A stretch of DNA of 61,676 nucleotides from Candidatus Latescibacterota bacterium. GTDB lineage: Bacteria > Latescibacterota > UBA2968 > UBA8231. Both the position numbers and the translations under genes were made by a program. The notes beneath the pieces were generated by a model. The model saw only the letters and a list, made by a program, of their open reading frames with translations. It searched no databases and was not told where the DNA came from. Within the stretch, counting starts at the first letter, position 1, and each line of letters opens with the position of its first letter. The stretch is taken from positions 1-61,676 of the forward strand of contig CBDBCT010000002.1 in NCBI GenBank assembly GCA_965203355.1, given 5' to 3'. Shown piece after piece: positions 21,758 to 55,068 of this stretch.

Positions 21758-21833
21758 GGTTTCGGAATAGAGAGACGAGGCGGGGGCTGAACCGCATTGA
21801 CAACCGACCAACGTAGAGCGGACGAGAACGCGC

Positions 21834-32208: not shown

Positions 32209-33594
32209 ATGAGTAAAGGATCAACGCAACTTCCCGAATCGCTGCCCGAGGACATACGGGCAGCATACGACCGCATGACAGACGCCGAACGCGAGCCGAT
32301 CCACTACTGGCTATGTCACGAGTCCAGCCGGGCTGAAACCCTCATCCAAGAGTACATCAACACCCTTAGCCAGCACCAAGAGCTGTCCGTCTCTGGTACT
32401 GGCGTGGTTGACCAGCACCAAGAGACCGCCGCAGAGTTCTTCTTCCGCGGTGCCGATACACCCGACGAGGTTATTGAACGCCTTGAAGTATTCCTATGGG
32501 ATAGGGATCACCAAGGCAAGCCCCGACCTGACGAGCAAGCCAACTTTTCTAAACTGGGGGCTTTAGCAACAAAGGACACTGATCAAGGCTCTTCAGCGAC
32601 AGCGGACGATCCGCTATACCGCTTCATGGTAGAGCATCTTGAATGGATGCTGACCGACCAGCCTATCGAGACACATCCCGCCGCAGCGCCTATCCGAACG
32701 TGGTGGTCAAAGCCCAAACCCGTTGAGCCGTACCGTCCTCGACCGCGGGCGGTGCTAGCCAACTGGAACACCGACGGTGACAAAGACCGTTTCCTACTGC
32801 AAGCCCGTCAGCCCATGCCTATGCCGGAAGGCGTACAGCTCATGCTTGACTTACCTGAACTGACGCCCAAAGGCTCGGCATCTTGGCTCCTCGACTTATT
32901 TGACCGGGCTGGCGGAAAGACCATGCGGCAAGGGAGGGGGGCACCGTGGGACATGCGTCTTTTTGTCGGTGCTATACTGCACCTCCCGATAGCGAAGCGC
33001 GACGGCCAGTGGCACACCCTCAGCTTGCCGACCAACGAGGTCATCCGTTGGCTACACCCCGATGGTTGGCACAATCAGACACGAGATTGGCAGCACCTGC
33101 CCGACGCCCTTTTTCGGATGAATAAGGAGCTCGGCTTTGTCGCAATCCAAGGCCTAGGGTATGTGCAAGTCGTCGGCGCGACCGTCATCCCCAAGGAGCC
33201 GAGCGATCCCTTTGTTGAGTTTACCATCCGCATCCCCAAGACAGCGGCCTATGGCGCACGACTCGACTGGCAACGCTTGTGCCAATACGGGCAAGTGTCC
33301 GCCGTGCTCTACAGGGCGTACTTAGCCGCCGTAGACTTCATGCACCTATCGGCCGAGCAAGGCAAAGCAGTCGAGCAGGCCGTGAAGGGCAAAGACGGCA
33401 AGCTCCGACCGAACCCCTCAACTCGCTATGTCCGAGGACTGACTAAAGGCGAACTGACCGAGATGATCGGGCTAGACCTGAACAGACGGAATAATCCGGG
33501 TAGGGCAATAGATGCCTTTGAACGCTTGGCCGACGATGGAGTCATTGAGCTCGTCCGCGAGCACAACTTGTGGCGGATTTTCGGACCTGCGTAG
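32209..33594 (+). CDS. Putative plasmid replication initiator of unrecognised family
   Basis: 461-aa ORF with GAGGT RBS and wHTH-like C-terminus, followed immediately by DnaA boxes and iterons. Confidence 0.65.
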   Translation: MSKGSTQLPESLPEDIRAAYDRMTDAEREPIHYWLCHESSRAETLIQEYINTLSQHQELSVSGTGVVDQHQETAAEFFFRGADTPDEVIERLEVFLWDRDHQGKPRPDEQANFSKLGALATKDTDQGSSATADDPLYRFMVEHLEWMLTDQPIETHPAAAPIRTWWSKPKPVEPYRPRPRAVLANWNTDGDKDRFLLQARQPMPMPEGVQLMLDLPELTPKGSASWLLDLFDRAGGKTMRQGRGAPWDMRLFVGAILHLPIAKRDGQWHTLSLPTNEVIRWLHPDGWHNQTRDWQHLPDALFRMNKELGFVAIQGLGYVQVVGATVIPKEPSDPFVEFTIRIPKTAAYGARLDWQRLCQYGQVSAVLYRAYLAAVDFMHLSAEQGKAVEQAVKGKDGKLRPNPSTRYVRGLTKGELTEMIGLDLNRRNNPGRAIDAFERLADDGVIELVREHNLWRIFGPA

Positions 33595-34401: not shown

Positions 34402-35589
34402 ATGGCCCTTGAGCTACAGACTTTGCAAGATGCGGTTGCCGGAACCGCCGCCGCTTTTCGGTGTACAACCGACTACCAACCGGCCGGTGGCCCCGGCGAC
34501 AAGGTGTTCCCACCGACCTACGAAAACGGGAAATACGCGACAGAAGACCGCATAGACCCGAAGACTGGTGAGGAGTGGCAGTGCGTTCTTTTAGACTCCG
34601 TGCAGTCGCAGGCTAACCGGATGGAGTTGGCATTGCTGGAAGCGCACCGCGGCGGCAAGGTCCAACTGCCTTTGTTGGTGACGCACTTTGACCAAGAGAA
34701 ACTACCTAAGAAATTTGCCATATCCAGCTTGGAAGCTCCGCATCGGATTGCGGACGCGCTGTTTCGCGACAGCTTGTTGGATGGCCTAATGTTCCGCAAA
34801 TCGGACAAAGGAGCCATGCTCAATACCGCTGACATTCGCAACGCCACCGGTCTGTTCGGTCTGTGCCCGACCGCACTGGTATTTGGCTTGTGGGATTCGA
34901 CCGGGCCCCGCGGGGGCCTTGGCTGCAAGTTCCAGCGGGCCTTGGTGTCGGAGATCGTAGGGTATAACGCGGTAGCTGGGGTGAAGACAGCCAGCCGCCT
35001 AGATCCTGCACAAATTGGGAAGGGGGGCGTTACGCTGTACGAGCACCAAGCTGAAAGCGACAATAAGCCACACTGGACTTTAAGCGAGACCAACAAAAAA
35101 TTGAAGAAGAAGGGGACACCCGCGGAGGCCAATCACGGTAATATCCCTCCCAGCATCTCAGACGGCGGCTTCACCCTGTCGAAAGCGCGGCAGACAACCA
35201 CGTTGTCGCTGTCGGTTTTGCGCCGCCTCCGCTTCCCGCTCAACGGCGCATCACATTCCGACGACGCGACCGATCTCGCTGCTCGCACCGTACTGGCGGC
35301 CTTGGGCCTCGCCGCCGGTACCCTAGCGCGCGTTGATGTGGATCTGCGCTCCCGCTGCCAGCTCTTTGCCGAGCAAGAGTCCGTCTGGGAGCTACTCGAT
35401 CGCCCCGGTGAGGAACCGCGACAGTTCGAGCTTGTGCCCGACGCCGCACTCCAACTGCTGAATCAAGCAATCTGCGAGGCTAAGGCCGCGCATCTGCCAT
35501 GGGAGGGCACCATCGAACTGACTCCCGCGGACGATTTAGTCGAATTGGTGCGGAGGAGCCAAGAGTTGGGGGGAGCGGAAGAAGAATAA
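34402..35589 (+). CDS. csb1: Type I-G Cas7 (Csb1)
   Basis: PAGGPGDKVFPPTY, LLDSVQSQANRME, EAPHRIADA, PTALVFGLWDS, DLRSRC. Confidence 0.93.
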   Translation: MALELQTLQDAVAGTAAAFRCTTDYQPAGGPGDKVFPPTYENGKYATEDRIDPKTGEEWQCVLLDSVQSQANRMELALLEAHRGGKVQLPLLVTHFDQEKLPKKFAISSLEAPHRIADALFRDSLLDGLMFRKSDKGAMLNTADIRNATGLFGLCPTALVFGLWDSTGPRGGLGCKFQRALVSEIVGYNAVAGVKTASRLDPAQIGKGGVTLYEHQAESDNKPHWTLSETNKKLKKKGTPAEANHGNIPPSISDGGFTLSKARQTTTLSLSVLRRLRFPLNGASHSDDATDLAARTVLAALGLAAGTLARVDVDLRSRCQLFAEQESVWELLDRPGEEPRQFELVPDAALQLLNQAICEAKAAHLPWEGTIELTPADDLVELVRRSQELGGAEEE

Positions 35590-37940
35590 TGTTCGCTCTT
35601 GGCCTCCACTACCTAAACGGGTGGGCGATGGCCGCTGCGGACGGGGCCAAGAAAGAACGAGCCGAATGGCCGCCGCATCCAGACCGGGTCTTCATGGCGT
35701 TGGCCGCCGCTTGGTTTGAGACCGGCGAAGATCCCGCCGAAGGCGAAGCACTGCGCTGGCTGGAAACGCTGCCGCCCCCTGCGATTGCGGCTTCAGACGC
35801 GGAAAGGCGCGTCGCTGTTGTTAGCTATGTACCCACCAACGACGCATGTGTTAAAAGCACCATGCCCATCAGTGGAGACTTGGGCAAACTAAAGAAGGCT
35901 GGCTTGGACGTACTACCCGAGCATCGGTCGCGCCAGCCTCGTGGTTTCCCAGTCGCCATTCCCCACGACCCAACGGCATATCTGATTTGGCCAGCGGTCG
36001 AGTGGGGTTCGCATCGCGACGCCCTGAAACAGCTAGCCGCCAAAATTACGCATGTGGGGCATTCGGCCTCCTTTGTACAAGCGTGGTTTGAGGATGACTG
36101 CCAGGTCGCCGCTAATTGGAAACCGACCGAAGAAGTTGCCAGACACCGCTTGCGGATTCCGACCACGGGTCGGCTTGATGGACTTATCCGAGCCTGTAAC
36201 CGCGCCGCGTGGATTGAATATCAGGACCTGCGCGGCGCGATCGAGCAAGCTGAAGCGGAACTCAAGGAGATGAAACACCCGCCAAGGGTGGCGTGGGAAG
36301 CATTCGCAGACGTGGTTTTGCTGGCCGGAGAATCCCAGACCAAGCAGCACTCCGCGTATCACGACGCGAAAGCGAGAGGGGACGCCGTGGCCGCGACAAA
36401 TCTCGTCAACAGCTTGGTTGACGAAACCGGGATCGCTGCGGTGGGGACCCTGATTGGCGCGGTCAGCCAAAGCGGAAATCCCATACTGGTAAGCGCACAT
36501 GCTTGGGAAAGCCAAGGTCTCAATGCCATTCCTGCGGCCTTGACGAGACTGCTGAGCGAGTGCTTGGGGTTCCCCCGCGAGACGGCTATTGTACAGACGA
36601 ACATCGTCTCTCACACGGGCGCGGACGGCTATGGTCGCCTGGCTCGTCAGGCTTGCTTTGATGGCCCCATTGAGGCTGGTCGCGAGTATGTGATGGTGGA
36701 TGATTTCGTCGGCCAAGGCGGTACGTTGGCCAACCTGCGCGGTTGGATAGAAAAACAGGGCGGTCTGGTCGTCGGGGCCATTGCGCTGACGGGCAAACCC
36801 TACTCCGCTAAACTAAACCCCTCACAGGAGCAACTACATGAACTCCGACAAAAGCACGGAGCAGACTTTGAGCAATGGTGGAAGGAACACTTCGGCCACG
36901 CATTCGATTGCCTTACTCAGTCGGAGGCTCGGTACCTCGCCCGCTCCCCGGATGTTGACGCGATCCGAGATCGACTTACTGCGGCAAAGCAAGGTGGAGG
37001 TAGATCGAATAGCAGGCGAAGTCCTCGCGAGCAAAGACAGTACATCAAGGAAATGAAGGCGCGGTTGAAAAACCGCTTTCCCAATGGGAGACCGCCGACC
37101 CGGCGTCCGGTGCCCAGCCGCTGGCAGGGATATGATCGATCACCGAAGGACAAAGACCCGGAAGTCCCCGGCTCGATTTTTGACCCTCGACTCATCGTCC
37201 TCGGCATCAAGGGCAAGCGCGTGTCTCTGCCAGCGACGCTCAAGCTCACGGCGGCTCTACGTGGATTGTTGCTGAGCGCGTGTCCCGAACAACCGCCCCC
37301 CGAGTGGTTGAGCGGCCATCGTCGGGACGGAACCCCTACTGCCGAACCGCATCTGGCCTTGATGCCTCTCCCCTTTGTAGGAGCAGAGTATGCGGACGGC
37401 TTGATTATGGGGCTGGCTATGGTCCTGCCGACGGGGGAAGCCGGGCATTGCCTCGAACCGTTCCTGCGCGATCCATCTACCGGATTGCCGCGTGAGTATC
37501 CGCTGTTTGATGGCCAGTGGTTCGAGTGTGCTATTGCGCTGGAAACCCGCGAACGCCCCCCGAAAAACCTCGACTCGGACACTTGGACCCGAAAGTCGCG
37601 CGTTTGGGCAAGCGTGACCCCGGTAGTTCTGAATCGGCATTTTGACGGCAAGGACAAGTGGGAGCGGGCCACCGAGAGCGTGAAGGACATGTGCGAACAC
37701 ATCGGTCTGCCGCGCCCCCGCGCGGTGCGGCTGCATCCGGCCTCGCTAGTCGCAGGCGTACCTCATGCCCGATCCTATCCGCCGTTGACGCGCAAAAGCG
37801 ATGGCGGACGCCGTAGCCACAACCACGTGGTACTCATCTTTGCGGAGCCAGTGTGCGGCCCGGTGCTCGTGGGGGCAGGCCGGTTCCGGGGATATGGACT
37901 ATGCCGCCCGATGGATGAGCAAGGTGCGGACCGTGCCTGA
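35589..37940 (+). CDS. csb2: Type I-G Csb2 (Cas5-Cas6 fusion) with inserted phosphoribosyltransferase domain, 783 aa
   Basis: EWPPHPDRVFMALAAA and YVPTND (Cas5 half); WASVTP and GPVLVGAGRFRGYGLC (Cas6 G-loop); central VMVDDFVGQGGTL PRPP loop. ATG overlaps the csb1 TAA. Confidence 0.9.
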   Translation: MFALGLHYLNGWAMAAADGAKKERAEWPPHPDRVFMALAAAWFETGEDPAEGEALRWLETLPPPAIAASDAERRVAVVSYVPTNDACVKSTMPISGDLGKLKKAGLDVLPEHRSRQPRGFPVAIPHDPTAYLIWPAVEWGSHRDALKQLAAKITHVGHSASFVQAWFEDDCQVAANWKPTEEVARHRLRIPTTGRLDGLIRACNRAAWIEYQDLRGAIEQAEAELKEMKHPPRVAWEAFADVVLLAGESQTKQHSAYHDAKARGDAVAATNLVNSLVDETGIAAVGTLIGAVSQSGNPILVSAHAWESQGLNAIPAALTRLLSECLGFPRETAIVQTNIVSHTGADGYGRLARQACFDGPIEAGREYVMVDDFVGQGGTLANLRGWIEKQGGLVVGAIALTGKPYSAKLNPSQEQLHELRQKHGADFEQWWKEHFGHAFDCLTQSEARYLARSPDVDAIRDRLTAAKQGGGRSNSRRSPREQRQYIKEMKARLKNRFPNGRPPTRRPVPSRWQGYDRSPKDKDPEVPGSIFDPRLIVLGIKGKRVSLPATLKLTAALRGLLLSACPEQPPPEWLSGHRRDGTPTAEPHLALMPLPFVGAEYADGLIMGLAMVLPTGEAGHCLEPFLRDPSTGLPREYPLFDGQWFECAIALETRERPPKNLDSDTWTRKSRVWASVTPVVLNRHFDGKDKWERATESVKDMCEHIGLPRPRAVRLHPASLVAGVPHARSYPPLTRKSDGGRRSHNHVVLIFAEPVCGPVLVGAGRFRGYGLCRPMDEQGADRA

Positions 37941-40878
37941 GCTAAACGCGACAGACTTCGGCCCGTTTTTCCGCGAGTTATGGGATTATCGGCCCTTTGC
38001 TTGGCAGCAAGCCTTGGTCGATAGGGTGCTGGGTTGTCCAGCGAAGCCTTGGCCCGAAGCTATTGCCTTGCCGACAGCAGCGGGCAAGACCGCGTGCTTG
38101 GACATTGCGGTATTCGCGTTAGCAGCTCAGGCGTCTCGGTTGGCCCAGAAGCAACACATCACGGCACCGCGGCGCGTGTTCTTGGTCGTAGATCGGCGCG
38201 TAATCGTGGACCAAGCATACGAGCGGGCCCAGCTGCTAGCTGAACGTCTTGCCGACGCTGAGGTCGGCATCCTCAAGCGCGTGGCCGATGGACTACGTCA
38301 GATCGCCCACGGGGCGGCGGACGGGTTCGAGGAGGCCCGGCCGTTGGCTGCTTATGTATTGCGCGGCGGCATGTACCGTTCGGAGGCTTGGATGAACAGT
38401 CCGCTTCAACCCATGGTGATGGCCTCGACGGTCGATCAGCTCGGCTCCCGCCTGTTGTTTCGCGCCTATGGCCGCGGCCCTAGCACATGGCCGATAGCCG
38501 CGGGGTTGGTCTCCAACGACAGCCTGATTTTGCTCGACGAGGCGCATTGCGCCCAGCCATTCCTGCAAACCTTGCAAGCGGTGCGGTGCTATCAAAATTG
38601 GGGTCGCACTCCGCTCGGGCGACCCTTTTATCCGGTGGTGATGTCAGCGACACCGCCGCCAGGGATGGACCTATTCGAGGACCTATCCGAAGAAAGCCGC
38701 GATCCCGCTCATCTACTTGGCCGACGTTGTCTAGCGCAAAAGCCTGCCATGCTGAAGACCGTCGAAAAGGCCAAGGGAAAGCAGGCCACAAGTATATTGG
38801 CTCGGGCTTTGACCGACGCGGCCTTGGAGCTTGTCGGGGAGAACCGCCGCGCTATCGCAGTGTTCGTCAACCGCGTCGCCACGGCGCGAGCGACCTATTG
38901 TCTGCTCTACGGCCGGGCGGACCTTGACGCCGTATTGCTAACGGGGCGGATGCGCCCCGTTGATAAGAATGACTTGGTTGAGCAACGCTTGAAACCCCTC
39001 GAATCCGGTCAGTCGGCCCGACGCACACTGGCAAAGCCGGTGATTGTCGTGGCTACCCAAACCCTGGAAGTCGGGGCCGATCTCGATTTCGATGGCTTGG
39101 TGACCGAGTGCGCCAGTCTCGACGCGCTGCGCCAGCGTTTCGGTCGCTTGAACCGCATGGGGCGGGCGATTGACGCACGAGCGATGATACTAGTACGCGG
39201 TGATCAGGCCGATGAGAACAAAAAGCAGGTCGATCCTGTTTACGGAGAGGCCTTGACCCATACTTGGACTTGGCTCAACGAGTGCAAGAACGAAAACGGT
39301 GAGGTGGATTTCGGGATCGCTCCTATCGAGGAGAAGCTGCCAAAGGGCGATACCCTTTCTGCACTCAACGCGCCGTCCGCCGATGCTCCGGTGATGCTTC
39401 CCGCCCACGTCGATTGCTGGGCGCAGACGGCACCGGCACCACAACCTTCGCCCGATGTGGCGTCGTTTCTACATGGGCCTCGCGAAGGCGCAGCCGATGT
39501 GCAGGTCTGCTGGCGTGCTGATTTGGATTTGATCCAAAAAAAGAAGACGGCACTGGAACGTCTGGCCTTGTGCCCGCCTAGCAGCGGCGAAGTGCTACCG
39601 GTGCCGATTGGCGTGTTTAGACGTTGGCTGGCCGGAGAGGACGCCGCAGACGACAGTGCCGATGTGGAAGGGGGCGGAGTAGAGGATGGCTCACGCGAGA
39701 ACGGTGCGTTCCCAGTGGTGCGGTGGCGGGGGGCCGAAACCGAAGTCGAACACATCACCGCAGACCCTAAGGCGATTTGTCCAGGCGACATCATCGTGAT
39801 TCCGACCAGTCATCCGGGGCCGCCCAGTCAACTCGGCGACCTGCCGCCGGATGCCCCGCTAGACGTAGGCGACCGGGCCTACCGTCTTGGGCGGGCTAAG
39901 CCCATCCTGCGTCTACACCCGGCTCTGGTGGATGCCTGGCCGGATTCCGTTAAAGAGACCGCTCGTGAGTTATTGAAAGACTTGGAGCAAAAGTACGAGG
40001 ACGACGAGCTTGACGATGCCTTGCGCGATCTTCTAACAGTGCTTTCCGATTTGCCCGAACCGCTTTGGCTAGCGGAAGTTGCCAGCGAACTCTGCCAGGA
40101 GTTTTCTAGGGCGAGACTTCAATCTCACCTAGTCGGAGGCAATAGTTTGGTGCTCGTTGGCCGCCGCATACCGCAACTGGCCGCTCAAGCCGACAACTTC
40201 AGCGATGAGGACGACGTCAGTGCGTCGGGTATTTCGCACCGCAATGGGCGTCCTGTCAAGCTGCGGCGGCACCTTTGCGGCGTCGAAGAAATGGCTCGTC
40301 GCCATGCCGCGGCCAGCGGCTTGCCCGAGGATTTAGTCGAAGCCATCGCCTGCGCTGGCCTGTTGCACGATTTGGGCAAAGCCGATCCTCGATTTCAGTC
40401 TTTGTTGCAGGGCGGCACTCGCTGGTTGGGCGGAGAGTATCTCGCTAAATCCGCCCAGATGCCCAAGACCCACGCGGCCCGCAATCGCGCCTATGCGGAC
40501 GCTGGGTACCCTAAGGGAGGTCGGCACGAACTGCTTTCGGTGCGTCTAGCCGAAAGCGCGGCAGAGCTTTTGCCGACAAGGGACGATCTGCGCGACTTGG
40601 TCCTCCATTTGATTGCCAGCCATCACGGCCGCTGTCGGCCGTTTGCGCCGGTGATATTTGACGAGCCGGGCGTGGATGTAGATTTCGAGTTGTATAGCCA
40701 GCGGCTGCACTGGTCTGGCTCTACTAATCTTGAACGCCTCGACTCTGGCGTGGCGGATCGCTACTGGCGGTTGGTTCGACGCTATGGTTGGTGGGGGCTG
40801 GCTTGGCTCGAAGCGCTGCTGCGCCTCGCCGATTGGCAGCAGAGCGAATGGGAGGAGACGCGCAATGACGGCCAGTAA
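37933..40878 (+). CDS. cas3: Type I-G Cas3 (helicase with C-terminal HD nuclease)
   Basis: LPTAAGKT, LDEAH, MSAT, QRFGRLNR, HDLGKAD, RHELLS, SHHG. Confidence 0.94.
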   Translation: MPELNATDFGPFFRELWDYRPFAWQQALVDRVLGCPAKPWPEAIALPTAAGKTACLDIAVFALAAQASRLAQKQHITAPRRVFLVVDRRVIVDQAYERAQLLAERLADAEVGILKRVADGLRQIAHGAADGFEEARPLAAYVLRGGMYRSEAWMNSPLQPMVMASTVDQLGSRLLFRAYGRGPSTWPIAAGLVSNDSLILLDEAHCAQPFLQTLQAVRCYQNWGRTPLGRPFYPVVMSATPPPGMDLFEDLSEESRDPAHLLGRRCLAQKPAMLKTVEKAKGKQATSILARALTDAALELVGENRRAIAVFVNRVATARATYCLLYGRADLDAVLLTGRMRPVDKNDLVEQRLKPLESGQSARRTLAKPVIVVATQTLEVGADLDFDGLVTECASLDALRQRFGRLNRMGRAIDARAMILVRGDQADENKKQVDPVYGEALTHTWTWLNECKNENGEVDFGIAPIEEKLPKGDTLSALNAPSADAPVMLPAHVDCWAQTAPAPQPSPDVASFLHGPREGAADVQVCWRADLDLIQKKKTALERLALCPPSSGEVLPVPIGVFRRWLAGEDAADDSADVEGGGVEDGSRENGAFPVVRWRGAETEVEHITADPKAICPGDIIVIPTSHPGPPSQLGDLPPDAPLDVGDRAYRLGRAKPILRLHPALVDAWPDSVKETARELLKDLEQKYEDDELDDALRDLLTVLSDLPEPLWLAEVASELCQEFSRARLQSHLVGGNSLVLVGRRIPQLAAQADNFSDEDDVSASGISHRNGRPVKLRRHLCGVEEMARRHAAASGLPEDLVEAIACAGLLHDLGKADPRFQSLLQGGTRWLGGEYLAKSAQMPKTHAARNRAYADAGYPKGGRHELLSVRLAESAAELLPTRDDLRDLVLHLIASHHGRCRPFAPVIFDEPGVDVDFELYSQRLHWSGSTNLERLDSGVADRYWRLVRRYGWWGLAWLEALLRLADWQQSEWEETRNDGQ

Positions 40879-41773
40879 ATCCCTGCTCCTGAACGGTCTG
40901 GATGGAAGCAATCCTCTCGGCTTTCTCGCGGCGATCGGCACGTTGAGGAGTGCTACCCGTGCAGATTCCTCTGCCGAGTGGAAGCTAAGTTGGCAAATAC
41001 ATGGCGGGACTTGGTCGCCTGCGCTCCATGGAAGTGTGCCGCTAACAGCGGATAGCTTGATCGAACTCCTGATGCCTGCCTTAAAGAAGATGGATGGCGA
41101 TCCAGCCTTGAATTTTGACCTTGATCTGACGCTGACTCGCGAACAGTTCCGGTGCGTGGCTCAAGATGCCCACGACAAGGCGACTTTCGCTGACCGGCAC
41201 TATGCAGATTTTATTGCCGCCTTTGGTTGCGATAGCCTTTCTATATCCGATCAGGATCCAAAAATTCAGGACACTGCTCTACGAACCATGAGCGGAGCGG
41301 GACATCAACACTTCATCGGTTCCATGCAGGAACTCGCGAAAAATACCGAATCAGATCATCTGCATAGCTCGCTGTTCGAGCTATGGCAATATCCAGATCC
41401 CAAGCCGAGTCTTCGCTGGGATCCAGCAGATGATCGCCGACATGCTTTGCGTTGGAAGGCTCCTAAAGACGACCCGGTGCAGACGATGCGTGGTGCTAAC
41501 CGTCTCGCCGTAGAAGCACTGCCCCTTTTTCCCACCGCACCTGTAGAACGGCAACTACATACGACTGGCTTTAGTGATGTGCGGTTTTCGTGGCCAATCT
41601 GGGAAGGAGCTTTGAACCTTGAAGTCGTGCGGTCCCTGCTCAGCTTGGCCGAGTTGCAAAAACCCCGACCAGACCGCAAGCGTCTTTTAGCGTTAGGCGT
41701 TGTCGAGATTTACCGGAGTCAACGAATTACTAGGGACAAATATCGCAACTTCACGCTTGCTATACCTGCATGA
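40865..41773 (+). CDS. cas8g: Type I-G short large subunit Cas8g (Csb3/Cas8u2-like)
   Basis: GLDGSNPLGFLAAIG, LRWDP, GANRLAVEALP, FSWPIW; located after cas3. Confidence 0.8.
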   Translation: MTASKSLLLNGLDGSNPLGFLAAIGTLRSATRADSSAEWKLSWQIHGGTWSPALHGSVPLTADSLIELLMPALKKMDGDPALNFDLDLTLTREQFRCVAQDAHDKATFADRHYADFIAAFGCDSLSISDQDPKIQDTALRTMSGAGHQHFIGSMQELAKNTESDHLHSSLFELWQYPDPKPSLRWDPADDRRHALRWKAPKDDPVQTMRGANRLAVEALPLFPTAPVERQLHTTGFSDVRFSWPIWEGALNLEVVRSLLSLAELQKPRPDRKRLLALGVVEIYRSQRITRDKYRNFTLAIPA

Positions 41774-41896: not shown

Positions 41897-43597
41897 ATGA
41901 CTCGCGCCCGCCAACTCCTCCTCCCCTTACCACCCCCGCCAGCTAACGCGAACACCCCGCTCGTCCCGGCCCGCATGATCAACGAGTGGGTCTATTGCCC
42001 GCGGCTTGCCTATTTGGAATGGGTGGAAGGAGAGTGGGCCGAGAGCGGGGACACGGCCGAGGGACGGCGTGCCCATGTCGGAGTGGATGCGGGCGGGGGC
42101 CGCTTGCCGGTGCCTGACGAGCTGGGCGAGGAAGTGGCTCGGGCCCGAGCGGTTACTATGTCCTCGGAGCGCCTCGGGGTCATTGCCAAGATGGATGTCG
42201 TGGAGGCCGCTGGGGGAATCGCCATGCCCGTGGATTTTAAGAAGGGCAAACGGCCCCACGTTGCTATGGGGGCATACGAACCGGAGCGCGTCCAGATTTG
42301 CACCCAAGCCATGATCTTGGAAGACAACGGCTACAAGGTCGAGCAGGGGGTGCTTTGGTACGCCGGCTCTCGCGAGCGGGTGCCGGTTGTGCTCGACGAT
42401 GAACTCCGCGCCCAGACCTTGGAGGCGATTGCCGGCCTGCGCTCTGCTGCGGCTAGTGGTCGTCGGCCAAGGCCGCTCGAGAATAGTCCCAAGTGCCCGC
42501 GCTGTTCGCTGGCTGGAATCTGCCTGCCGGACGAGACCAACCTGTTCCGCAAGGGCTATCCGCCGCGCCCGCTGAACCCGTCCGACGATCCAGCCCTGCC
42601 GCTCTACGTGCAGACGCCGGGGGCGCGGCTGCGCAAAAGTGGCGAGTGCTTGGTTGTGGAGACCAAAGAAGAAACCGTAGAAGTGCCCCTGATCGACGTT
42701 TCCCAAGTCGCCCTATTCGGCCCAGTCTCGGTGACCACGCCGGCCTTACACGCACTGATGCGTGCCGAAGTTCCAGTGTCGTGGTTTTCCACCGGCGGCT
42801 GGTTCCTCGGCCACACCGTGGGGACTGGCCATGGCAATGTGGCGGTGCGCGAGGCCCAGTACCGGGCGGCCTTTGACGAGCGCAGCCGCCTCGCATTTGC
42901 GCGGGACTTGGTGGTGGCCAAGGTGCGTAATTCGCGCACGATGTTGCGTCGCAACTGGCGCGTTAGTGGGGACGCGGAGGCCAAAAATGGAGCTTTGGCT
43001 CGGTTAAAGCGAATTGCCCAGCGGGTGCCTCGCGCCCAAGATAGCCAACAACTGCTGGGGATTGAAGGCGAGGCCGCGGCGATTTATTTTACTTGCTTTG
43101 AGAACATGATCGCCGCGGACTTGGCGGGGTTTTCTTTTTCCACGCGCAATCGGCGTCCGCCCACCGATCCGGTGAATGCGATGTTGTCGCTGGCCTATGC
43201 CTTGTTGACCCGGGTTTTCACGACCGCGATTTCGGCGACCGGCCTAGATCCCTACATGGGCCTCTACCATCGCCCGCGCCACTGCCGCCCGGCCTTAGCC
43301 CTCGATTTGATGGAGCCCTTTCGGCCCATTGTCGCCGATTCCTGCGTAATCCAAGCGGTCAACAATGGTGAGGTCAAACCGGGTGACTTTGTGTTCAACG
43401 GCCCGGCTTGCTCGCTCAAGACCGGCGGGCGCAAGGCGTTCATCGCCGCATTCGAGCGTCGCATGGAGCAGGAAACCACGCATCCACTTTTTGGCTATCG
43501 CGTCTCCATGCGGCGGCTAATTGAGGTGCAGGCTCGATTGCTCGCACGGCATTTGCAGGGCGAAATTGTCCCCTACCCGCATTATCTTCCTCGATAG
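41897..43597 (+). CDS. cas4/cas1: Cas4-Cas1 fusion
   Basis: VYCPR, DFKKG, CPRCSLAGIC; GIEGEAA, NRRPPTDPVNAMLS, ALDLMEPFR. Confidence 0.95.
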   Translation: MTRARQLLLPLPPPPANANTPLVPARMINEWVYCPRLAYLEWVEGEWAESGDTAEGRRAHVGVDAGGGRLPVPDELGEEVARARAVTMSSERLGVIAKMDVVEAAGGIAMPVDFKKGKRPHVAMGAYEPERVQICTQAMILEDNGYKVEQGVLWYAGSRERVPVVLDDELRAQTLEAIAGLRSAAASGRRPRPLENSPKCPRCSLAGICLPDETNLFRKGYPPRPLNPSDDPALPLYVQTPGARLRKSGECLVVETKEETVEVPLIDVSQVALFGPVSVTTPALHALMRAEVPVSWFSTGGWFLGHTVGTGHGNVAVREAQYRAAFDERSRLAFARDLVVAKVRNSRTMLRRNWRVSGDAEAKNGALARLKRIAQRVPRAQDSQQLLGIEGEAAAIYFTCFENMIAADLAGFSFSTRNRRPPTDPVNAMLSLAYALLTRVFTTAISATGLDPYMGLYHRPRHCRPALALDLMEPFRPIVADSCVIQAVNNGEVKPGDFVFNGPACSLKTGGRKAFIAAFERRMEQETTHPLFGYRVSMRRLIEVQARLLARHLQGEIVPYPHYLPR

Positions 43598-43602
43598 CGA
43601 AT

Positions 43603-43896
43603 ATGGCCAACGAGCGTCTTTATATTGTCGCATACGACATTGCCGAGCCCAAGCGTTGGCGGCGTGTGTTCAAAGTGATGAAAGGCTATGGGCACTGGCT
43701 ACAGTTGTCGGTTTTCCAGTGTCGGCTGACGGCCCGGCGACGCGCCGAGATGACCGTGCGGTTGGAAGATTCGATCAAATTGGCGGAGGATCACATCTTA
43801 ATCGTGGACTTGGGGCCTGCTGACCGAGTTGATCCCTTGGTAGAAAGTCTGGGCAAGACATACCAAGTGCCAAGTCGGCAAGCGACAATTGTTTAG
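43603..43896 (+). CDS. cas2: Cas2
   Basis: YIVAYDI, LQLSVFQC. Confidence 0.96.
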   Translation: MANERLYIVAYDIAEPKRWRRVFKVMKGYGHWLQLSVFQCRLTARRRAEMTVRLEDSIKLAEDHILIVDLGPADRVDPLVESLGKTYQVPSRQATIV

Positions 43897-44105: not shown

Positions 44106-46548
44106 GTTTTCCGGGGTTTCTTCGCCCCGGCCTCATTGAAGCCCGGACACGCGGCCAACCGCGCCGGGTGGATCGGCCCACCGTTTTCCGGGGTTTCTTC
44201 GCCCCGGCCTCATTGAAGCACGAGGTCCTCACGCAGATAGGAGACTGATCATGGCCGTTTTCCGGGGTTTCTTCGCCCCGGCCTCATTGAAGCTGGCGTG
44301 TCCCAGCGGCCTATCCGTGTGTGCCCGTGGTTTTCCGGGGTTTCTTCGCCCCGGCCTCATTGAAGCATCATGACCCAATTGGATCTACAATTTGCCGGGG
44401 GTTTTCCGGGGTTTCTTCGCCCCGGCCTCATTGAAGCGGCCTTTGAGCCGTTAGGCTCAATCAGAGTGTTGAAGTTTTCCGGGGTTTCTTCGCCCCGGCC
44501 TCATTGAAGCGACCGGTAGTTGAGTTTGATGCGAACCAATCACGCAAGTTTTCCGGGGTTTCTTCGCCCCGGCCTCATTGAAGCATTTGTTAGATTATGT
44601 TGTGCGCTTGGGAATTGGCCGTTTTCCGGGGTTTCTTCGCCCCGGCCTCATTGAAGCCGGCGTCAAGCCCGGGGTGCGCCAGGAGGCCACTAACCTGGTT
44701 TTCCGGGGTTTCTTCGCCCCGGCCTCATTGAAGCCTGATAGACAAGGTTCCAAACGGCATGTCGGTCATGGTTTTCCGGGGTTTCTTCGCCCCGGCCTCA
44801 TTGAAGCAAACTGTACGAGTTGCCGACAGAAACTTTGCCGGCTGCCGTTTTCCGGGGTTTCTTCGCCCCGGCCTCATTGAAGCGGAGTAGCCAAGCTCCG
44901 AGAGGACGCTTTCGACCAGCCGTTTTCCGGGGTTTCTTCGCCCCGGCCTCATTGAAGCGGTTGCCTTCGCTTCGGTTCCCTTCGCTTCGTCCAGCTACGT
45001 TTTCCGGGGTTTCTTCGCCCCGGCCTCATTGAAGCCAGTACCGGCTGGCCGTCTCGTACTGCTCGGTTATCGTTTTCCGGGGTTTCTTCGCCCCGGCCTC
45101 ATTGAAGCTAAGTGGTTCAATTCATAAAGCGTACGGAATTGTAACAGTTTTCCGGGGTTTCTTCGCCCCGGCCTCATTGAAGCATTTGTAATGTCGATTC
45201 TCTGACCCCTGGCCCACTGCGTTTTCCGGGGTTTCTTCGCCCCGGCCTCATTGAAGCGACCTTCGCGTCCTTCAAGAGCCCTTGCAGGCGGGTGATGTTT
45301 TCCGGGGTTTCTTCGCCCCGGCCTCATTGAAGCGTTTGTCGTTTTGCTAAAGTTTGACATGGATTTCTCCTGTTTTCCGGGGTTTCTTCGCCCCGGCCTC
45401 ATTGAAGCCTGGTCTGGGCGGAAATAGCGCAACTCGAATTGCTTGTTTTCCGGGGTTTCTTCGCCCCGGCCTCATTGAAGCATCGTCGGAGGGCTACCGT
45501 ATCCGCGAGCAGTTCGCCCGTTTTCCGGGGTTTCTTCGCCCCGGCCTCATTGAAGCGGTTGCTTACGTACCAAAGCAAAGCCGAAAATGACCACGTTTTC
45601 CGGGGTTTCTTCGCCCCGGCCTCATTGAAGCACTGGCCTGTGGATTTGTCGCTATATCGGCCCCGCTGTTTTCCGGGGTTTCTTCGCCCCGGCCTCATTG
45701 AAGCACCCGGTAGGGATGGCTCGCTATCTGACGACCGCGCAGTTTTCCGGGGTTTCTTCGCCCCGGCCTCATTGAAGCTACTCACGCCACAATCGCGCCA
45801 CAAACGCGGCAAACCGCCGTTTTCCGGGGTTTCTTCGCCCCGGCCTCATTGAAGCCCTGAGTAGGTCGGCGATGCGCCGGTAGCATTTGGCGGTTTTCCG
45901 GGGTTTCTTCGCCCCGGCCTCATTGAAGCCCCTTGCCTTGCCTTGCCGCTTGCCGCCTTGCCGCCTGTTTTCCGGGGTTTCTTCGCCCCGGCCTCATTGA
46001 AGCTTTGAGTTAGTCGCTTACGATCTCTAGTTCGGCGGCGGTTTTCCGGGGTTTCTTCGCCCCGGCCTCATTGAAGCGGTCACGGGCAACGCCTGCGCGC
46101 CGTTGCGGCGTAGCGGTTTTCCGGGGTTTCTTCGCCCCGGCCTCATTGAAGCTTGTTGAAGGCGGACGTCACCGCCGAGGGCAGTGAAGTTTTCCGGGGT
46201 TTCTTCGCCCCGGCCTCATTGAAGCGACAAGCAGCCGTTGACCCGTGCCGCCCCGTGGGGTCATTTCCGGGGGTTTTTCGCCCCGGCCTCATTGGAGGAA
46301 GCACTGAAGTAAGTCTATAGACCCCAATGTTCAGTATCGTGTTTCTGGCACTTCCGGGGGGTTGCCTCGGCCTCATTTCAGCTCCGAGGGGGTGTGACAA
46401 AGGGTGTATAATTTTGTTAGTAGTGTGCTATTTCCGGTTTTTCTTGCCTCGTCTTCATAGGGGAATCGAGTGGCGCGATAAAAGGCGAAGTGCTCCGTTA
46501 GTTAGCACAGCGCTATTTCCGCCTTTTTTGCCTCGGCCTCATTGCAGC
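44106..46548 (+). CRISPR. Type I-G array: 29 perfect 37-nt repeats plus 4 degenerate trailer repeats
   Basis: GTTTTCCGGGGTTTCTTCGCCCCGGCCTCATTGAAGC from 44106 to 46225, spacers 34-40 nt; degenerate units at 46262, 46349, 46429, 46514. Confidence 0.98.
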
Positions 46549-46638: not shown

Positions 46639-49600
46639 TTAAACCTCGTCGAGGTCTGGTCGCTCGCCGCGGGTCAGTTGGTCGTAGGCGCGGAGGACGT
46701 AGCGTTGGGTGCGGTACTCGCCGAACTCCTGGGTCTCGTTGCGTTTGAGGGCCGGGAAGGATGCGCTCGGCGCGGGCGCGTCTAAAATCCATTCGAGATC
46801 GGCGCGGTCTAGCTGGTATAGGTGCGCGAAAAGGGCGTCGAGTTCGCACTTGAGGCGGTGGCGGCGGTCGTCGTCGTAGGAAAAGGGCGGCCCGTCGTAG
46901 CCCAAGTCGCGGGCAAACCCTTCGAGGTCGGCGGCGGTGTAGGTCAGTTCCAAGACGCGGGGGACGATGAGTTCGACGTATCGGAGGCCGGGGAGCACCT
47001 CTTCGAGATAGGCTTCGGGCGGCAGGACGGGAAGTTGTTTGACGATGAAAAAGGCCATATTGACACCCCCTATCGACGAGCGGGTAGCCCAGTCGAGGGG
47101 AAGGCTGTTCATGTTCGCCAAGACCAACGCAGAAGCGATTGCTCGCGCCTGATCGTAATCCACAACCGCAGAGCTATGACCCACGGCACCCCGGAGAATA
47201 TTCCCGGAGACAATAGTCCGCTCATTCGTGGCGTTGGTGATGTTGCGGAAAACCTGAAGCCACTTTGAGTAGTCGATATGCAAGAGAGGTGCTTTATGGT
47301 TCATAGCTGAGATTCCCGTTGCTACCGTAAAGATGGCTGTCCGCTGGTTGGTTGGGCCGGAAATGTCGCGGAAGACAAGCCGCCAACGCTGATGGTCGTT
47401 CCCGAATCGCCCAGACCAAAATACGGCATCACGGCGAAGATTCCCGTCCGCTCGTTGGTCGCGTTGGTAATTTTCCTGAGAGCGAGCTGCGAGCCAATTC
47501 GGTAAGCATAGAGAGCGTGCGTGCGTGCGTGCGTGACGCAATCAGTGGGATCACTTCGGTTTTATTAAGTCTTTTTTCGACTTCTTCCGCCGGCACCCAA
47601 TAGCGGGGGAGCGGCACGGCCTGCGCGTCGGCTTTTTCCGCGGCCGTCATGGGCCGGGCGTTGCCGCCTTTGAGGTCTTTGGCCGCAACGCCTTCAAACG
47701 TGGCAAAGCGATGATCGTACTGGTGGAACAGCTTCGCTTCGTACAGGGGGAGAAAGCATTCCGGCTCGGCGTCCCCACGCACGAACACATTGCCCACAAG
47801 CTGCCAGCCCGCTTCTTCCAACTGCTCGCGGGTGCGAAAGAGGCCAGAGTCATTGGACATGTGGAACATACTGGAAAACTTCACGCCCCACGGGTTCACC
47901 TCCGGCTCGGCCCCTTTCGCCTCCTTCCAGAGCACCCCGGCGCGGCCGTACATCTTGCGGGCAATTTCCATGTCGCGCCGCGTGCGAAAGATGGGGCACG
48001 TGCGGGTGTTGGGATTGAACAGGGCAAAATCCTCAGCCGACAGGGTGAACCGCCGCGCTGAATCGCGCAGTTGCTCGGCTTGGTACAGGAAGAAGGCGAA
48101 CTCGGCCGGGGAAACAGGGCACTCGGCGCCGGTCAGCGTGAGCAGGCAGAATTTGATGCGGCTGTCTATGCTTGGGAAAACCTTTTCCCGATTTTCAAAA
48201 TCGTAGAGACTAACGAGCCGCTGGCTGGCGACCATTTTGTCGAAAAACGCTTTGGTCGAATTGTCGGTGGCAATGCCGGTCGGCACAATCAGGCCGGCGC
48301 GCCCGCGCGGCCCAATCAACGCAAAGAACAGCTCGGCAAACACCGCATACGTGTTGACATCGCCGACGCCCGCCAGCGGGAATCTACCTCCCGTGCGGAC
48401 AAACTGACTGGTGGCCTCGGCTTGCCGTTGTGCCACTTGGAACTCGGCAAAAAGGGCCTTTTCGTCCGGCCGGGCGTCCTCGCGGACCAACTGCTTGATG
48501 AGGCGGGCGCGGGCGGCTTTGTTGGGTGCTTGCGCGATGTCAGGCGACCGCGCCGCGAAAAATTCCTGCTCCTGCAACTTGATGCGTTCCCACGGCGGAT
48601 TCCCCAACACCACGTCAAACCCCCCATCCTGCATAATCTCGGCAAAGGCCAGATGCCAATGAAAAAAGCCGTGCTGCTCGGCGAGTTCGCACGCCGCCTC
48701 GCCGACGCCGGGCCGCATGACCAAACCGGCCTGGAGGCGATTGAAGTCCTCAGCAAACGGCACGGCGTCTGCGCTGCTCGGCGTCTTGGGCGCAAAATAC
48801 GCCCCGACAAACAGATCGGCCCGCAGTTTCTCTTGGCGGCGATCGATGGCCGCATATGCCGTGCGCTTGCGATCTACATCCTCAATCGTTTCCTCGGGCA
48901 TATCGTCGAGGTCTAGAGTCGCCACCGCCACTTCCAACAAGCTGTCTGAGTCAAACAAATCGCCCTGCACCGCATCGCCCACTTGGCGATTGCGCTTCCT
49001 AAGCTCGGCACAGACTTCCTTGTCATCGCCTTTCAAGGGCTTGTACGCGGCCGGCGGAATGCCGTTGGCCATGCTCTGCGGGTCGAGTACGCCGACGAGG
49101 CTGTCGCCGTGCCGAATGTGCGCGTGGAGAAAGGTCAGCGGCTTGCCCGGCTGCACCGCCTCGATCCACAAAGCGGTCTGGCACAACTCAACCGCCAGCC
49201 GATTGCGGTCCACGCCATAGATGCAATGCTGCACCACGGACCGCAGGGCTTGCTGATGAGCGGCCTCGCCGCTTGCCGCTTCGCAGCGGACTATTTCGGC
49301 CGCCATGCGCCGGGCGGCCGCCAAGAGGAAATGACCCGAGCCGCAGGCCGGATCGATGACCCGCAAGGCGAGAATTGCTTTGCGCGGATTTTCAGGATGC
49401 TCGGCGACCGCTGCGGCCAGCACCGGCTCCAACGTCGATTTGATCAGCTCGTTGACGAGGGACGCGGGCGTGTAGTACGAACCGGTGAGCTTGCGCTCGG
49501 AGCCTTTGCCCTTTTCGCGGCTGAGGCCATCGCCAACAAAGCCAAAAGTCCAAGGCGTCGCGTTCACATCTACCACCGGCTGAAGCTCCAACAGGCTTTC

Positions 49601-50845
49601 GTACACCGAGCCCAGCTCTTCCACGCCCATGTCGCGGTAATTGACGCGGGCGAGGGCTTCGTCGGTGCGGAAGAAAGCCAGCTTTCGCACCGCCTCTAAA
49701 AGGAACCTGTTGGCCAAGGTCGCCTCCGCCAAATCCGGGCACTGATCCGCCCGAAACAAGCCCCCTAAAGCCGGCAAGCCCAGGGCCGGCACCCCTTGGT
49801 CGAGCGCACCAAAGGTAATCCGCAGGCCCTCGTACAGATCGTGGTGGTGGTCAAAATGGCGGCGGCGCGAGGCGCGTTCGCGCAATCGTGCGACAGAATA
49901 CCCCTCGGCAAACAGGGTGCGTTGTTGGGCGGTGGCTCCGGGTACATGCAGCAGCTCGCGCTCTTCGGCTGTAAAGAGAAACAACAAGCGGTAGATAAAT
50001 CGCAGTAGCTGCTGAAAATAGGCCTCGGGCGAGAGCTGCCCGGCGGACAGGGCCTGGCGCAGGGCTGCGTTGTCCGGGTGTTGTAGGAAGCCATTGCCGA
50101 GCTGCCGCAGGGCTTGGGTGACGCCGTCGCGGAGGTTGTCTAAGGCGCGTTCGCCGGTCTGATGGGCTTGGCTGCGCCAGCTTTCGATGATACAACTGGC
50201 CGGCTGGCCATTGGTTGGCTGCAAACGGCTGGCGTGGACGGTGAGCCAAAGCGCCGCAAAATCCGCGTAGAGTCCCTCCGCGAACATCCGGTCCAAATCG
50301 GCCTCAATGCAGGCGCGCCGGGTCAGGCTGGAGTTGTCGCGGAGGAGGCGCAGTTTTGAGCCGTTGGCAACGATCCCCCACAAAGAAGCATCCTCGGCAT
50401 TGAGGTACTCTTGCATCAATTCGTGCGGTGTTTGCCGACGTCCCTCGTCGCCAAAACGCCGCTCGGCCTGGTCGAGTTCAAAGTCGCGCGTGGTCAAAAG
50501 CAGGGGCACCCGCTCACTACAAGCGCGATGAGTTAGCGCAAAACGCCGCTCGCCCAGCACGACGCGCTCAGCCGCGGTCATATCGTCATAGCCGAGGATG
50601 TCGCACAACAAAGGTCTCAGCCATTCGTCCACGCTGGTCTGACGGCCTTTGGCGTACAGATCGTTGGCGATGCGCCAGTAGCGGGCCATTTCCTCCTTGA
50701 GCGCGAGGGACTGAGAGAGGCCGTAGTCAGCGCCGGTCTGGCTGGGGGCCTTTAGGGCGGCGATGGTCTGTAGGAACTCAGGCGGCAAAATGCCGCCTTC
50801 GGCCCTAAGAGCCGTGAATCCATGCTCTTTTCGTGTGCGTGCCAT
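46639..50845 (-). CDS. Eco57I/type IIG-like adenine methyltransferase, currently frameshifted at an (ACGC)5 tract
   Basis: LGSVYESLLE, GSYYTP, IDPACGSGHF, GNPPW, LPLYEAK; C-terminal part (NSLPLDW, VKQLPVL, LELTYT, GEYRT) lies in ORF 46639-47541. Confidence 0.88.
47515..47534 (-). repeat. Tetranucleotide repeat (ACGC)5
   Basis: gcgt five times on the + strand, exactly at the frame break. Confidence 0.9.
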
Positions 50846-50951
50846 TTTTGCTTTTTATCGCCCGTTTTCCGCTCAATTATAGGGATTGTTGTGCTTCTGG
50901 TTGGTGGTGCCGTGCGCACGGGCGACGATGTGATCTATGTGGAAGTCGACC

Positions 50952-51776: not shown

Positions 51777-51885
51777 GCCTTCTCCTCTCGTGGTGTCTTA
51801 CCACTGTGTTAATAAGACCTCTTCAACCTCGTCTCCCGCGTCCGCCTTGAAGCCGTCGTCGTCGTCCGAGTAGGGTCTTGCCGGT

Positions 51886-52098
51886 TCATGGTTTATTAAC
51901 CTTCTCCAGTTGACCAGCGAGGTTCAAAAGCAGGGTGTGCATGTCACACGCATAGCGACCTGCGTCTCGAAACACTTCTTGCCGCTCAGCGTCGTTTTTG
52001 GCACGGTTATAGGCGGCGATCAGCAAGTCAGGGGTGCCGCCTTGTTTGGCACATAGGCCCAGGCTTGCCAGCACTTTTTGCTCCTTAGGGTTGTTCAT
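51886..52098 (-). CDS. Small hypothetical protein (70 aa)
   Basis: MNNPKEQK... ORF downstream of the SNF2 gene. Confidence 0.45.
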   Translation of the reverse strand: MNNPKEQKVLASLGLCAKQGGTPDLLIAAYNRAKNDAERQEVFRDAGRYACDMHTLLLNLAGQLEKVNKP

Positions 52099-52129
52099 CT
52101 TCAAGGTCCTGATCTGACTCCTAACCGCT

Positions 52130-54976: not shown

Positions 54977-55068
54977 CGCAGCAATGCCTTATCGTTTAGA
55001 ACCTGTTTGAAAACCGCACTCATCCCCGGCGCCCGCGGTGCCTAGCGGAACGATTCGCCGGCCAATCC

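Follow-up and report, generated by a model that had tools for sequence, protein, structure and literature searches.

The stretch of DNA analysed here (61,676 nt, called the window, to whose positions all coordinates refer) comes from a Candidatus Latescibacterota bacterium (contig CBDBCT010000002.1 of assembly GCA_965203355.1) and carries a type I-G CRISPR-Cas locus whose csb2 gene encodes an additional domain. We are highly confident that the tip of the Csb2 hairpin carries a phosphoribosyltransferase (PRT) domain of about 250 amino acids (aa) that belongs to a mobile-element family, and that this architecture marks a widespread, horizontally spread type I-G subclade in which it is held under purifying selection. 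Along csb2, the following segments can be distinguished:

35589..36200, + strand: Cas5-like N-terminal half, aa 1-204 (PF09609; aligns with canonical Csb2)
36201..36269, + strand: ascending hairpin helix, aa 205-227 (predicted helix; homologous helix in canonical Csb2)
36270..37022, + strand: inserted ComFC-like PRT-fold domain, aa ~228-478
36690..36728, + strand: phosphoribosyl pyrophosphate (PRPP)-loop signature VMVDDFVGQGGTL, residues 368-380 (aligns with the PRPP loop of the Thermus adenine phosphoribosyltransferase, APRT, 5zgo)
37023..37076, + strand: descending hairpin helix, aa 479-496 (predicted helix; homologous helix in canonical Csb2)
37179..37937, + strand: Cas6 C-terminal half, aa ~531-783 (second TIGR02165 stretch; lowest ratio of nonsynonymous to synonymous substitution rates, dN/dS, of the gene)

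The open reading frame (ORF) at 35589-37940 is free of stops and encodes 783 aa, as a first-pass annotation made from the letters alone had stated, and the PRPP loop at 36690-36728 and the AK.RGD, NAIP and HTGADG.GRL motifs of the insert (AKARGD, residues 260-265; NAIP, 312-315; HTGADGYGRL, 342-351) lie where it had placed them. Against TIGR02165, the type I-G Csb2 equivalog model, the protein scores 294.4 bits (cut-off 45), and the insert splits this match into two stretches, starting at profile 1-238. The PF09609 match covers aa 47-230 of frame P0001, whose start lies 30 aa upstream of that of P0009.

Alignment of 24 insert-bearing Csb2 sequences (including the deletion variant L039) with 13 canonical ones (494-568 aa) revealed that canonical Csb2 already possesses a helix-turn-helix hairpin joining its Cas5-like and Cas6 halves, and that the extra ~250 aa take the place of the hairpin turn. 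Together with the two TIGR02165 stretches, this alignment bears out the proposed position of the insert between intact Cas5 and Cas6 halves. The interval first given for the insert, 36279-36998, covers most of the domain, and the alignment is better fitted by about 36270-37022. The two flanking helices, YQDLRGAIEQAEAELKEMK (211-229) and REQRQYIKEMKARLKNRF (479-496), are present and predicted as helices (205-227 and 479-496 in the full-length model); however, they are not new elements but the native hairpin of canonical Csb2. In the full-length AlphaFold2 (AF2) model of Csb2, which has a predicted local distance difference test score (pLDDT) of 75.6 and a predicted template modelling score (pTM) of 0.46, a compact and confident domain stands between the helices, with low-confidence linkers at 468-475 and 506-524; because the pTM is low, the domain orientations in this model are not fixed. 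In the canonical Csb2 proteins of L049, L054 and L055 (558-568 aa), the hairpin is extended by about 35 aa at the PRT insertion site, and its tip appears tolerant of length change.

The cas locus that contains csb2 has the following organization:

34402..35589, + strand: csb1 / cas7g (TIGR02570, E 8.8e-20; PF09617, E 2.2e-52)
35589..37940, + strand: csb2, 783 aa with the inserted PRT domain (TIGR02165, E 2e-87, two stretches)
37915..40878, + strand: cas3g helicase-nuclease (TIGR02621, E 3.5e-218, profile 1-854)
40865..41773, + strand: gene at the cas8g position (NF049934, E 1.4e-79, profile 1-298 of 299)
41897..43597, + strand: cas4g/cas1g fusion (NF049935, E 5.1e-231)
43603..43896, + strand: cas2 (PF09827, E 4.1e-18)
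44106..46298, + strand: CRISPR array, ~30 copies of a 37-nt repeat (repeat search and sequence inspection)

Gene overlaps consistent with the proposed coupling of csb2 to csb1 and cas3 exist on both sides: one base is shared between the stop codon of csb1 and the start codon of csb2, in TAATG (35587-35591), and the cas3g frame, open from 37801 with its start at 37894 or 37915, overlaps the 3′ end of csb2. Matches of Csb1, Cas3g, Cas4g/Cas1g and Cas2 to Pfam and NCBIfam models are full-length, and the HD domain of Cas3g is C-terminal (Pfam). The gene at the cas8g position, whose frame is open from a TTG at 40730, matches a model titled 'type I-G CRISPR-associated protein, Cas3-extension family', and no Csx17 or Cas8g2 model was among its NCBIfam matches listed. 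The earlier description of an intact locus thus holds for cas3g, cas4/1, cas2 and the array, and its 'cas8g' is to be read as a gene matching NF049934. Judged by these matches, the type I-G locus looks complete. The final repeat copy of the array is degenerate, and further decayed copies lie near 46353 and 46519.

Structure prediction and comparison support the assignment first made from the motifs of the insert: it has the PRT fold, with an alpha/beta core built on a central parallel sheet, and its PRPP-loop signature is intact. The AF2 model of the insert, computed from an alignment of 26 solo relatives, is confident (pLDDT 94.5, pTM 0.91); in a Foldseek comparison with the PDB, PRT-fold proteins fill all of ranks 1-50, and the top match among these best 50 is Helicobacter pylori ComF (7p0h_A, E 1.1e-5). 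By sequence, the best PDB matches are two Thermus APRTs (E 0.003, PRPP loop only); YVMVDDFVGQGGT pairs with VAIVDDVVSTGST in the APRT chain that was matched, and the position ahead of the glycines, usually Thr/Ser, is a Gln. An NCBIfam match to XopC/Rsp1239 at residues 354-451 (E 0.0032; 15.7 bits, where the cut-off is 1000) was dismissed as PRPP-loop similarity. No PADLOC model matches the insert or the solo protein P0281.

Conservation was assessed at two depths. Among 32 Csb2 sequences carrying the insert (66-79% identity), D371-D372, G375-T379, H342-T343, N312 and I314-P315 are invariant, A313 is nearly so, and the C-terminal SEARYL.RSPD block is mostly invariant, its exceptions being Q444, A451 and the variable position. 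Among 27 members of the wider family (37-69% identity; domain numbering), K31, E77, N82, Q106, F127, D141, D142, T149, T213 and E216 are invariant; R120 is nearly invariant and may be the arginine named in PMC5512222. The segments AHAxE..N.IP and VQxN.V.HTG...RLA are conserved where the pyrophosphate loop and the flexible loop are expected, and may correspond to them. Because the PRPP-loop residues and these others are invariant, the ligand site looks intact.

An exhaustive search of 1.84 billion cluster representatives recovered 2074 relatives of the insert at E <= 0.001, and the insert matches phrog_22413, a phage family of unknown function, over profile positions 11-235 of 242 (E 1.8e-61). 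The relatives comprise solo proteins of ~240 aa, proteins of 500-900 aa with the domain at the C terminus and giants of 1000-4700 aa; those of polyvalent type measure 2000-4700 aa. Pfam analysis of sampled relatives revealed fusions of Phage_Mu_F with the PRT domain and one polyvalent protein in which LPD37 and LPD39 occur, and in Moraxella phage Mcat8 the domain forms the end of a 579-aa protein whose gene directly follows the portal gene. Phages and plasmids carry the family in all three forms, as solo genes, in MuF fusions and in polyvalent proteins. The kinship with phosphoribosyltransferases (PRTases) of mobile-element polyvalent proteins, suggested in the first-pass annotation, is thereby confirmed. 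In the excerpted text of PMC5512222, Iyer et al. (2017) describe a PRTase of invasive elements whose role is 'somewhat enigmatic', report a conserved arginine after the second strand that is common to these proteins and ComFC, and propose nucleotide production or sensing; CRISPR is not mentioned in the available part of the PRTase section of that source. The insert belongs to the same sequence family as this group and has its DD motif and the conserved residues specific to the family. However, the mobile-element PRTases sit in the invader's injected proteins, whereas the copies described here sit in a host CRISPR effector subunit or are encoded by a gene of the cas operon, and the type I-G copies form a clade of their own.

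This clade emerged from a domain tree of 128 rows, retained from 169 candidates after 41 covering <200 model positions were dropped; both this tree and the backbone tree described below are quick trees with support from the Shimodaira-Hasegawa-like approximate likelihood ratio test (SH-aLRT). All nine sampled Csb2 inserts fall within one 15-row clade (SH-aLRT 99), whose other rows are three solo copies linked to cas genes together with L048, P0129 and a truncated Csb2. The clade lies nested within mobile-element copies of the solo and polyvalent kinds.

The architecture is not confined to the window. A word-indexed protein search (1512 proteins at E <= 0.001 among 8000 candidates scored) found it in at least 119 other 90%-identity clusters, with lengths of 724-814 aa, 91-100% query coverage and 66-79% identity; few of those listed are named, and the annotation is only 'type I-U Csb2' or 'Cas5/Cas6'. 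From one-genome-per-species contigs we collected 74 loci and assigned them to classes ourselves: 33 full-length insert-bearing loci, 6 truncated or contig-cut insert-bearing loci, 1 in-frame deletion variant, 19 canonical loci, 9 solo-domain loci and 6 fragments. The search for other Csb2 proteins with the same insertion, proposed at the outset, thus shows that the window protein is not a singleton. The 33 full-length loci bear the labels Latescibacterota, Binatia, Nitrospirota, Acidobacteriota, Alphaproteobacteria, Gammaproteobacteria and Myxococcota, many of them on long-read chromosomes of 3-7 Mb, and a contig-cut insert-bearing copy carries a Dehalococcoidia label. Within Latescibacterota, the phylum of L003, Csb2 occurs in 24 of 167 genomes, 7 of which (of the 24) have a split TIGR02165 match in a frame of 788-813 aa.

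The insert is under purifying selection. Nei-Gojobori estimates over the 301 of 496 sequence pairs with 0.05 < dS < 1.5 gave dN/dS values of 0.18 for the Cas5 half, 0.17 for the insert, 0.32 for the linker and 0.12 for the Cas6 half, which answers the earlier question of neutral evolution in favour of constraint. Left out of this analysis and of the backbone tree were L007 (internal stop), L019 (a near-duplicate of L018) and the truncated L022, L035-L038 and L053.

That the gene might be an assembly chimera or a mis-joined contig finds some footing in the assembly graph, which branches within csb2 at 36606/36612 and 37163, the stretch between showing 1.4-5 times the depth of its flanks (three runs, two studies). 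Both junctions are nevertheless bridged by contigs from three runs in two studies: X1 record 1 and X2 record 9 correspond to 35589-36641, X4 record 15 to 36156-36345, and X1 record 7, X2 record 11 and X4 record 16 bridge up to 37163. With the same architecture in the other clusters and on the long-read chromosomes, the chance of a chimera is practically negligible, and the concern raised with the original description is settled. Other contigs leave the 36606-37163 stretch into different sequence, and one loose end resembles the decayed repeat at 46353-46385; the communities concerned seem to contain part of the PRT region in another context too. In two Gammaproteobacteria metagenome-assembled genomes, L035 and L037, the locus is decayed: the first csb2 residue retained corresponds to query residue 294 or 332, within the PRT domain, the remnants adjoin cas3 fragments, and the breakpoints lie near the graph branch point at 36606 (residue 340).

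We reconstructed the history of the carrier gene from Csb2 sequences stripped of the hairpin and insert columns. In this backbone tree, a single group (SH-aLRT 83) takes in 30 of the 33 insert rows, and L018/L030 and L029 lie beside canonical genes. The topology needs at least three changes of insert state, two of them forced by the starred branches, and fits one gain with losses as well as it does several gains. Because the backbone tree departs from organismal taxonomy, the locus must move horizontally.

Natural variants indicate that the module can be lost. The nearest relative of the window Csb2 (84%) is L039, also from Latescibacterota, in which an in-frame deletion of ~197 aa has removed most of the PRT domain and left 586 aa with both hairpin helices and both RAMP (repeat-associated mysterious protein) halves. 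At a second locus of the Binatia genome G002, a window-type csb2 lacks aa ~287-391, including the DD pair, in an open frame of 677 aa that adjoins a different type I-G effector set. An otherwise intact insert-bearing csb2 at L007:8001-10355 has an in-frame stop at the Gln of the VGQGGT loop, which may reflect a sequencing error or a genuine knockout. L087 (G002:C1:990000-1006000) is a hybrid type I-G locus in which a complete L047-type set (cas3g, cas8g2, csb1, csb2; described below) is directly followed by a window-type csb2, truncated at its N terminus and with the PRT domain partly deleted, and then by window-type cas4/1 and cas2.

The domain also occurs as a separate gene of type I-G systems. 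In L047 and L051 (Binatia), a 257-aa solo PRT protein, 68-70% identical to the insert, heads a different type I-G operon of the order PRT-cas3g-cas8g2-csb1-csb2, with a PRT-cas3g gap of 14-63 nt, and in the domain tree both copies group within the clade of Csb2 inserts. The Csb2 of these operons is free of the insert and has an extra C-terminal RAMP-like region. This variant (L047:13463-15628 and L051:13475-15655) is 721-726 aa long, with the full TIGR02165 match within the first ~490 aa and an extra ~230 aa that end in a second glycine-rich RAMP-like motif, a pattern repeated in five Latescibacterota genomes. In one Latescibacterota genome (L086), a decayed PRT remnant occupies the same operon head. 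The solo PRT gene of the L047-type operon is facultative. That the domain is fused to Csb2 in one operon and adjacent in another argues that it works with the type I-G machinery.

Solo copies lie beside helicases as well. At L063:5038-8729, a solo PRT gene is divergent to a gene for a 990-aa protein that combines a ResIII helicase and a TnsA-like nuclease domain (a type III restriction enzyme in PADLOC, E 1.3e-24), and a DNA methylase is encoded next door. A 988-aa ORF holds the same divergent position beside the solo PRT at L064:261-3945. The repeated adjacency to superfamily 2-type helicase-nucleases points at Cas3g as the partner. A further solo copy, L048, lies between two AAA ATPases, and a close one, L062, lies near a DUF2779 protein and a Mu transposase. 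L050 and L048 were rejected as independent solo genes: their tblastn matches (query 218-513 and 233-501) reach the Csb2 hairpin helices, and they may be relics of csb2 genes that carried the insert. The clean operon-head genes are therefore only those of L047 and L051, together with the L086 remnant.

A defence island surrounds the cas locus (window 761-2389, 7118-8119, 18893-21811 and 47429-60366). Its genes encode an N6_N4 methylase-HNH fusion, a phage-type integrase, an HmaB-like adenine methylase (PADLOC, 1508.7 bits), a DrmMI / type IIG-like methylase, a DpdE/DrmD-like SNF2 helicase (E 1.4e-204) and a 1765-aa DruE-like helicase with an MrfA Zn-binding domain. About 800 nt 5′ of csb1 and on the same strand lies a 461-aa ORF (32209-33594), which has no significant family in Pfam, NCBIfam or PADLOC.

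Comparison with characterized systems delimits what the domain may do. Canonical type I-G Csb2 (formerly I-U; TIGR02165; Thioalkalivibrio sulfidiphilus, PMC9638904) shares both RAMP halves and the hairpin, and the operon partners csb1, cas3g, cas4/1 and cas2 and the array are likewise present in the window; the difference is the ~250-aa PRT-fold domain added at the hairpin tip of a protein whose canonical relatives measure 494-568 aa. The closest structure, ComFC (H. pylori ComF, PDB 7p0h), has the same PRT fold, in its C-terminal domain, at only 16% identity. As described in the accessible portion of PMC9005727, ComFC binds PRPP and nucleoside monophosphates, binds single-stranded but not double-stranded DNA, shields single-stranded DNA from nuclease and partners with the ComFA ATPase and DprA; DNA transport needs its PRPP site, its four-cysteine zinc finger is essential in vivo, and that portion reports no enzymatic activity. 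The insert differs in its extra N-terminal helices and C-terminal helical bundle, in its setting (a cas operon within a defence island rather than competence) and in having three scattered Cys with no CxxC pair in place of the N-terminal zinc finger; because it is without that four-cysteine finger, the insert is not a ComFC. ShosT (PDB 8zvc) offers a second comparison, a PRPP-binding PRT-fold domain in anti-phage defence that, according to the part of PMC11961720 at hand, acts catalytically on purine metabolism. It has an N-terminal pyrophosphatase domain and a DprA-like antitoxin gene, neither of which was found in Csb2 or its neighbours with Pfam and NCBIfam.

We tentatively favour, at somewhat less than even confidence, a reading in which the domain would be a PRPP- or nucleotide-binding, ComFC-like module that cooperates in a ligand-dependent manner with Cas3g on single-stranded DNA. 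The domain would bind PRPP or a 5-phosphoribosyl nucleotide, which we propose because the PRPP-loop signature and, by fold match, the surrounding pocket are kept. Much as ComFC does, it would then serve as a ligand-dependent nucleic-acid-handling partner of a helicase. The stalk would hold it at the Csb2 (3′) end of Cascade, where it could engage Cas3g or the displaced or unwound strand, and the effect might be an aid to loading, to processivity or to the hand-over of single-stranded DNA. On this analogy, the domain may contact Cas3g and may affect interference or adaptation. A binding and DNA-handling role seems at least as likely as catalysis, because the closest structure is ComFC and not a metabolic PRTase. 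A prediction of the insert in complex with Cas3g residues 1-745 scored 0.00 twice, without controls, and bears neither way on binding.

Several observations weigh against this reading. The ligand, DNA and Cas3g contacts of the insert would rest on analogy; the zinc finger that ComFC requires in vivo is absent, and in the accessible portion of PMC9005727 the domain of ComFC that binds single-stranded DNA is not settled. The PF00156 match stays below the gathering score of 26.3 bits, at 17.8 for the insert alone and 15.8 for the whole protein (P0130, a relative of the insert, passes at 29.8). The invariant polar residues outside the PRPP loop, including T213 and E216 of the C-terminal helical hood, fit an enzyme with a defined second substrate better than they do a pure binder, and ShosT, in the part of PMC11961720 at hand, sets a precedent for a catalytic defence PRTase acting on metabolism. 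An intact solo PRT gene occurs in none of the five Latescibacterota genomes with the L047-type operon, four of which are without any copy, and the deletion and nonsense variants (L039, the second locus of G002, and L007) show that the module is dispensable in some lineages.

The main rival, and the reading offered in the first-pass annotation, is an enzymatic effector, in which target-engaged Cascade would trigger use of PRPP, the making or destruction of a nucleotide-like product, or phosphoribosylation of a substrate, so that Cas3g cleavage would be joined by a metabolic, signalling or modifying activity. It is a possibility of real weight, if on the unlikely side: the PRPP-loop signature is intact and invariant, about a dozen more polar residues are invariant, including some in the helical hood, the usual site of the second substrate, nucleotide production or sensing was proposed by Iyer et al. 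(excerpted text of PMC5512222), and ShosT provides a defence PRTase acting on purine metabolism (PMC11961720, part at hand). Yet the locus has no pyrophosphatase partner or antitoxin-like gene, no PADLOC defence model matches the insert, no target-coupling mechanism is visible in the sequence, and for ComFC, the closest structure, the accessible portion of PMC9005727 reports no catalysis. More specifically, we regard as doubtful that this branch of type I-G Cascade has a working phosphoribosyltransferase with chemistry coupled to crRNA-guided (CRISPR RNA-guided) target recognition; such chemistry may include PRPP-dependent modification of invader DNA or nucleobases, or a local nucleotide signal that is made or destroyed. 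A pure ligand sensor, which like PurR and PyrR would bind PRPP or a nucleotide but not turn it over and would gate Cascade or Cas3g by the nucleotide pool, for example during phage takeover, would account for the conserved binding loops, and co-option of this kind is discussed in the ComFC paper (PMC9005727, accessible portion); it is nonetheless decidedly unlikely, given that nothing indicates allostery, that the domain sits at a stalk tip on flexible linkers (low pLDDT at 468-475 and 506-524) with no obvious signal path to the RAMP core, and that phage and plasmid relatives are unlikely regulators of a host Cascade.

Two further explanations draw on the origin and the variability of the domain. 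Its nesting among mobile-element copies, the MuF fusions and polyvalent proteins among its relatives and the defence island in which it lies would suit a role in counter-counter-defence, with the domain drawing off what an invader PRTase binds or acts on, as a decoy or competitor, or serving as anti-CRISPR bait. This explanation is purely inferential, no invader partner is known, and a decoy would not require strict conservation of the PRPP site; we hold it to be very unlikely. Least probable among the readings of function is that the domain is a tolerated passenger in a permissive surface loop with no role in CRISPR immunity. The deletions that keep the Csb2 frame open (586 aa in L039, 677 aa at the second locus of G002), the nonsense codon in L007 and the three or more gains or losses on the backbone tree speak for it; against it stand an insert dN/dS matching that of the Cas5 half, binding-site residues invariant in 32 sequences at 66-79% identity, an architecture kept in 33 full-length loci under many taxonomic labels, and the use of the same subclade as a separate gene heading another type I-G operon.

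Type I effector subunits with an accessory domain of catalytic type have a parallel in the HNH-Cascade variants, where the domain is a nuclease of obvious role, whereas the Csb2 insert has a nucleotide-sugar-binding fold with no known CRISPR role. Type I-G is, to our knowledge, the least understood type I system. In the literature searched, with supplementary tables and subscription classification papers outside its scope, we found no description of Csb2 proteins or cas operons with a PRT domain, and the words 'insert' and 'insertion' are absent from the text of the type I-G study PMC9638904. The parts, Csb2 and the mobile-element PRTase family, are known; what appears to be new is that they are combined and that the domain recurs as a cas gene. 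Among the open questions in the available text of PMC9638904 are what the Cas5-like half does and which position Csb2 takes in the complex.

A selected, widespread variant of the Csb2 stalk, together with a solo gene beside cas3g, points to an undescribed accessory activity of Cascade. It also offers a handle on the PRTase of MuF and polyvalent proteins, without known function since 2017, in a system with read-outs for interference, Cas3 processing and adaptation and with natural deletion mutants available for comparison. If the domain handles DNA, CRISPR interference would be linked mechanistically to the ComFA/ComFC/DprA machinery of natural transformation. If it is catalytic, it would represent a new kind of CRISPR effector chemistry, and a target-coupled PRTase would give type I CRISPR a second, non-nuclease effector activity, taken from the arsenal of the invaders.

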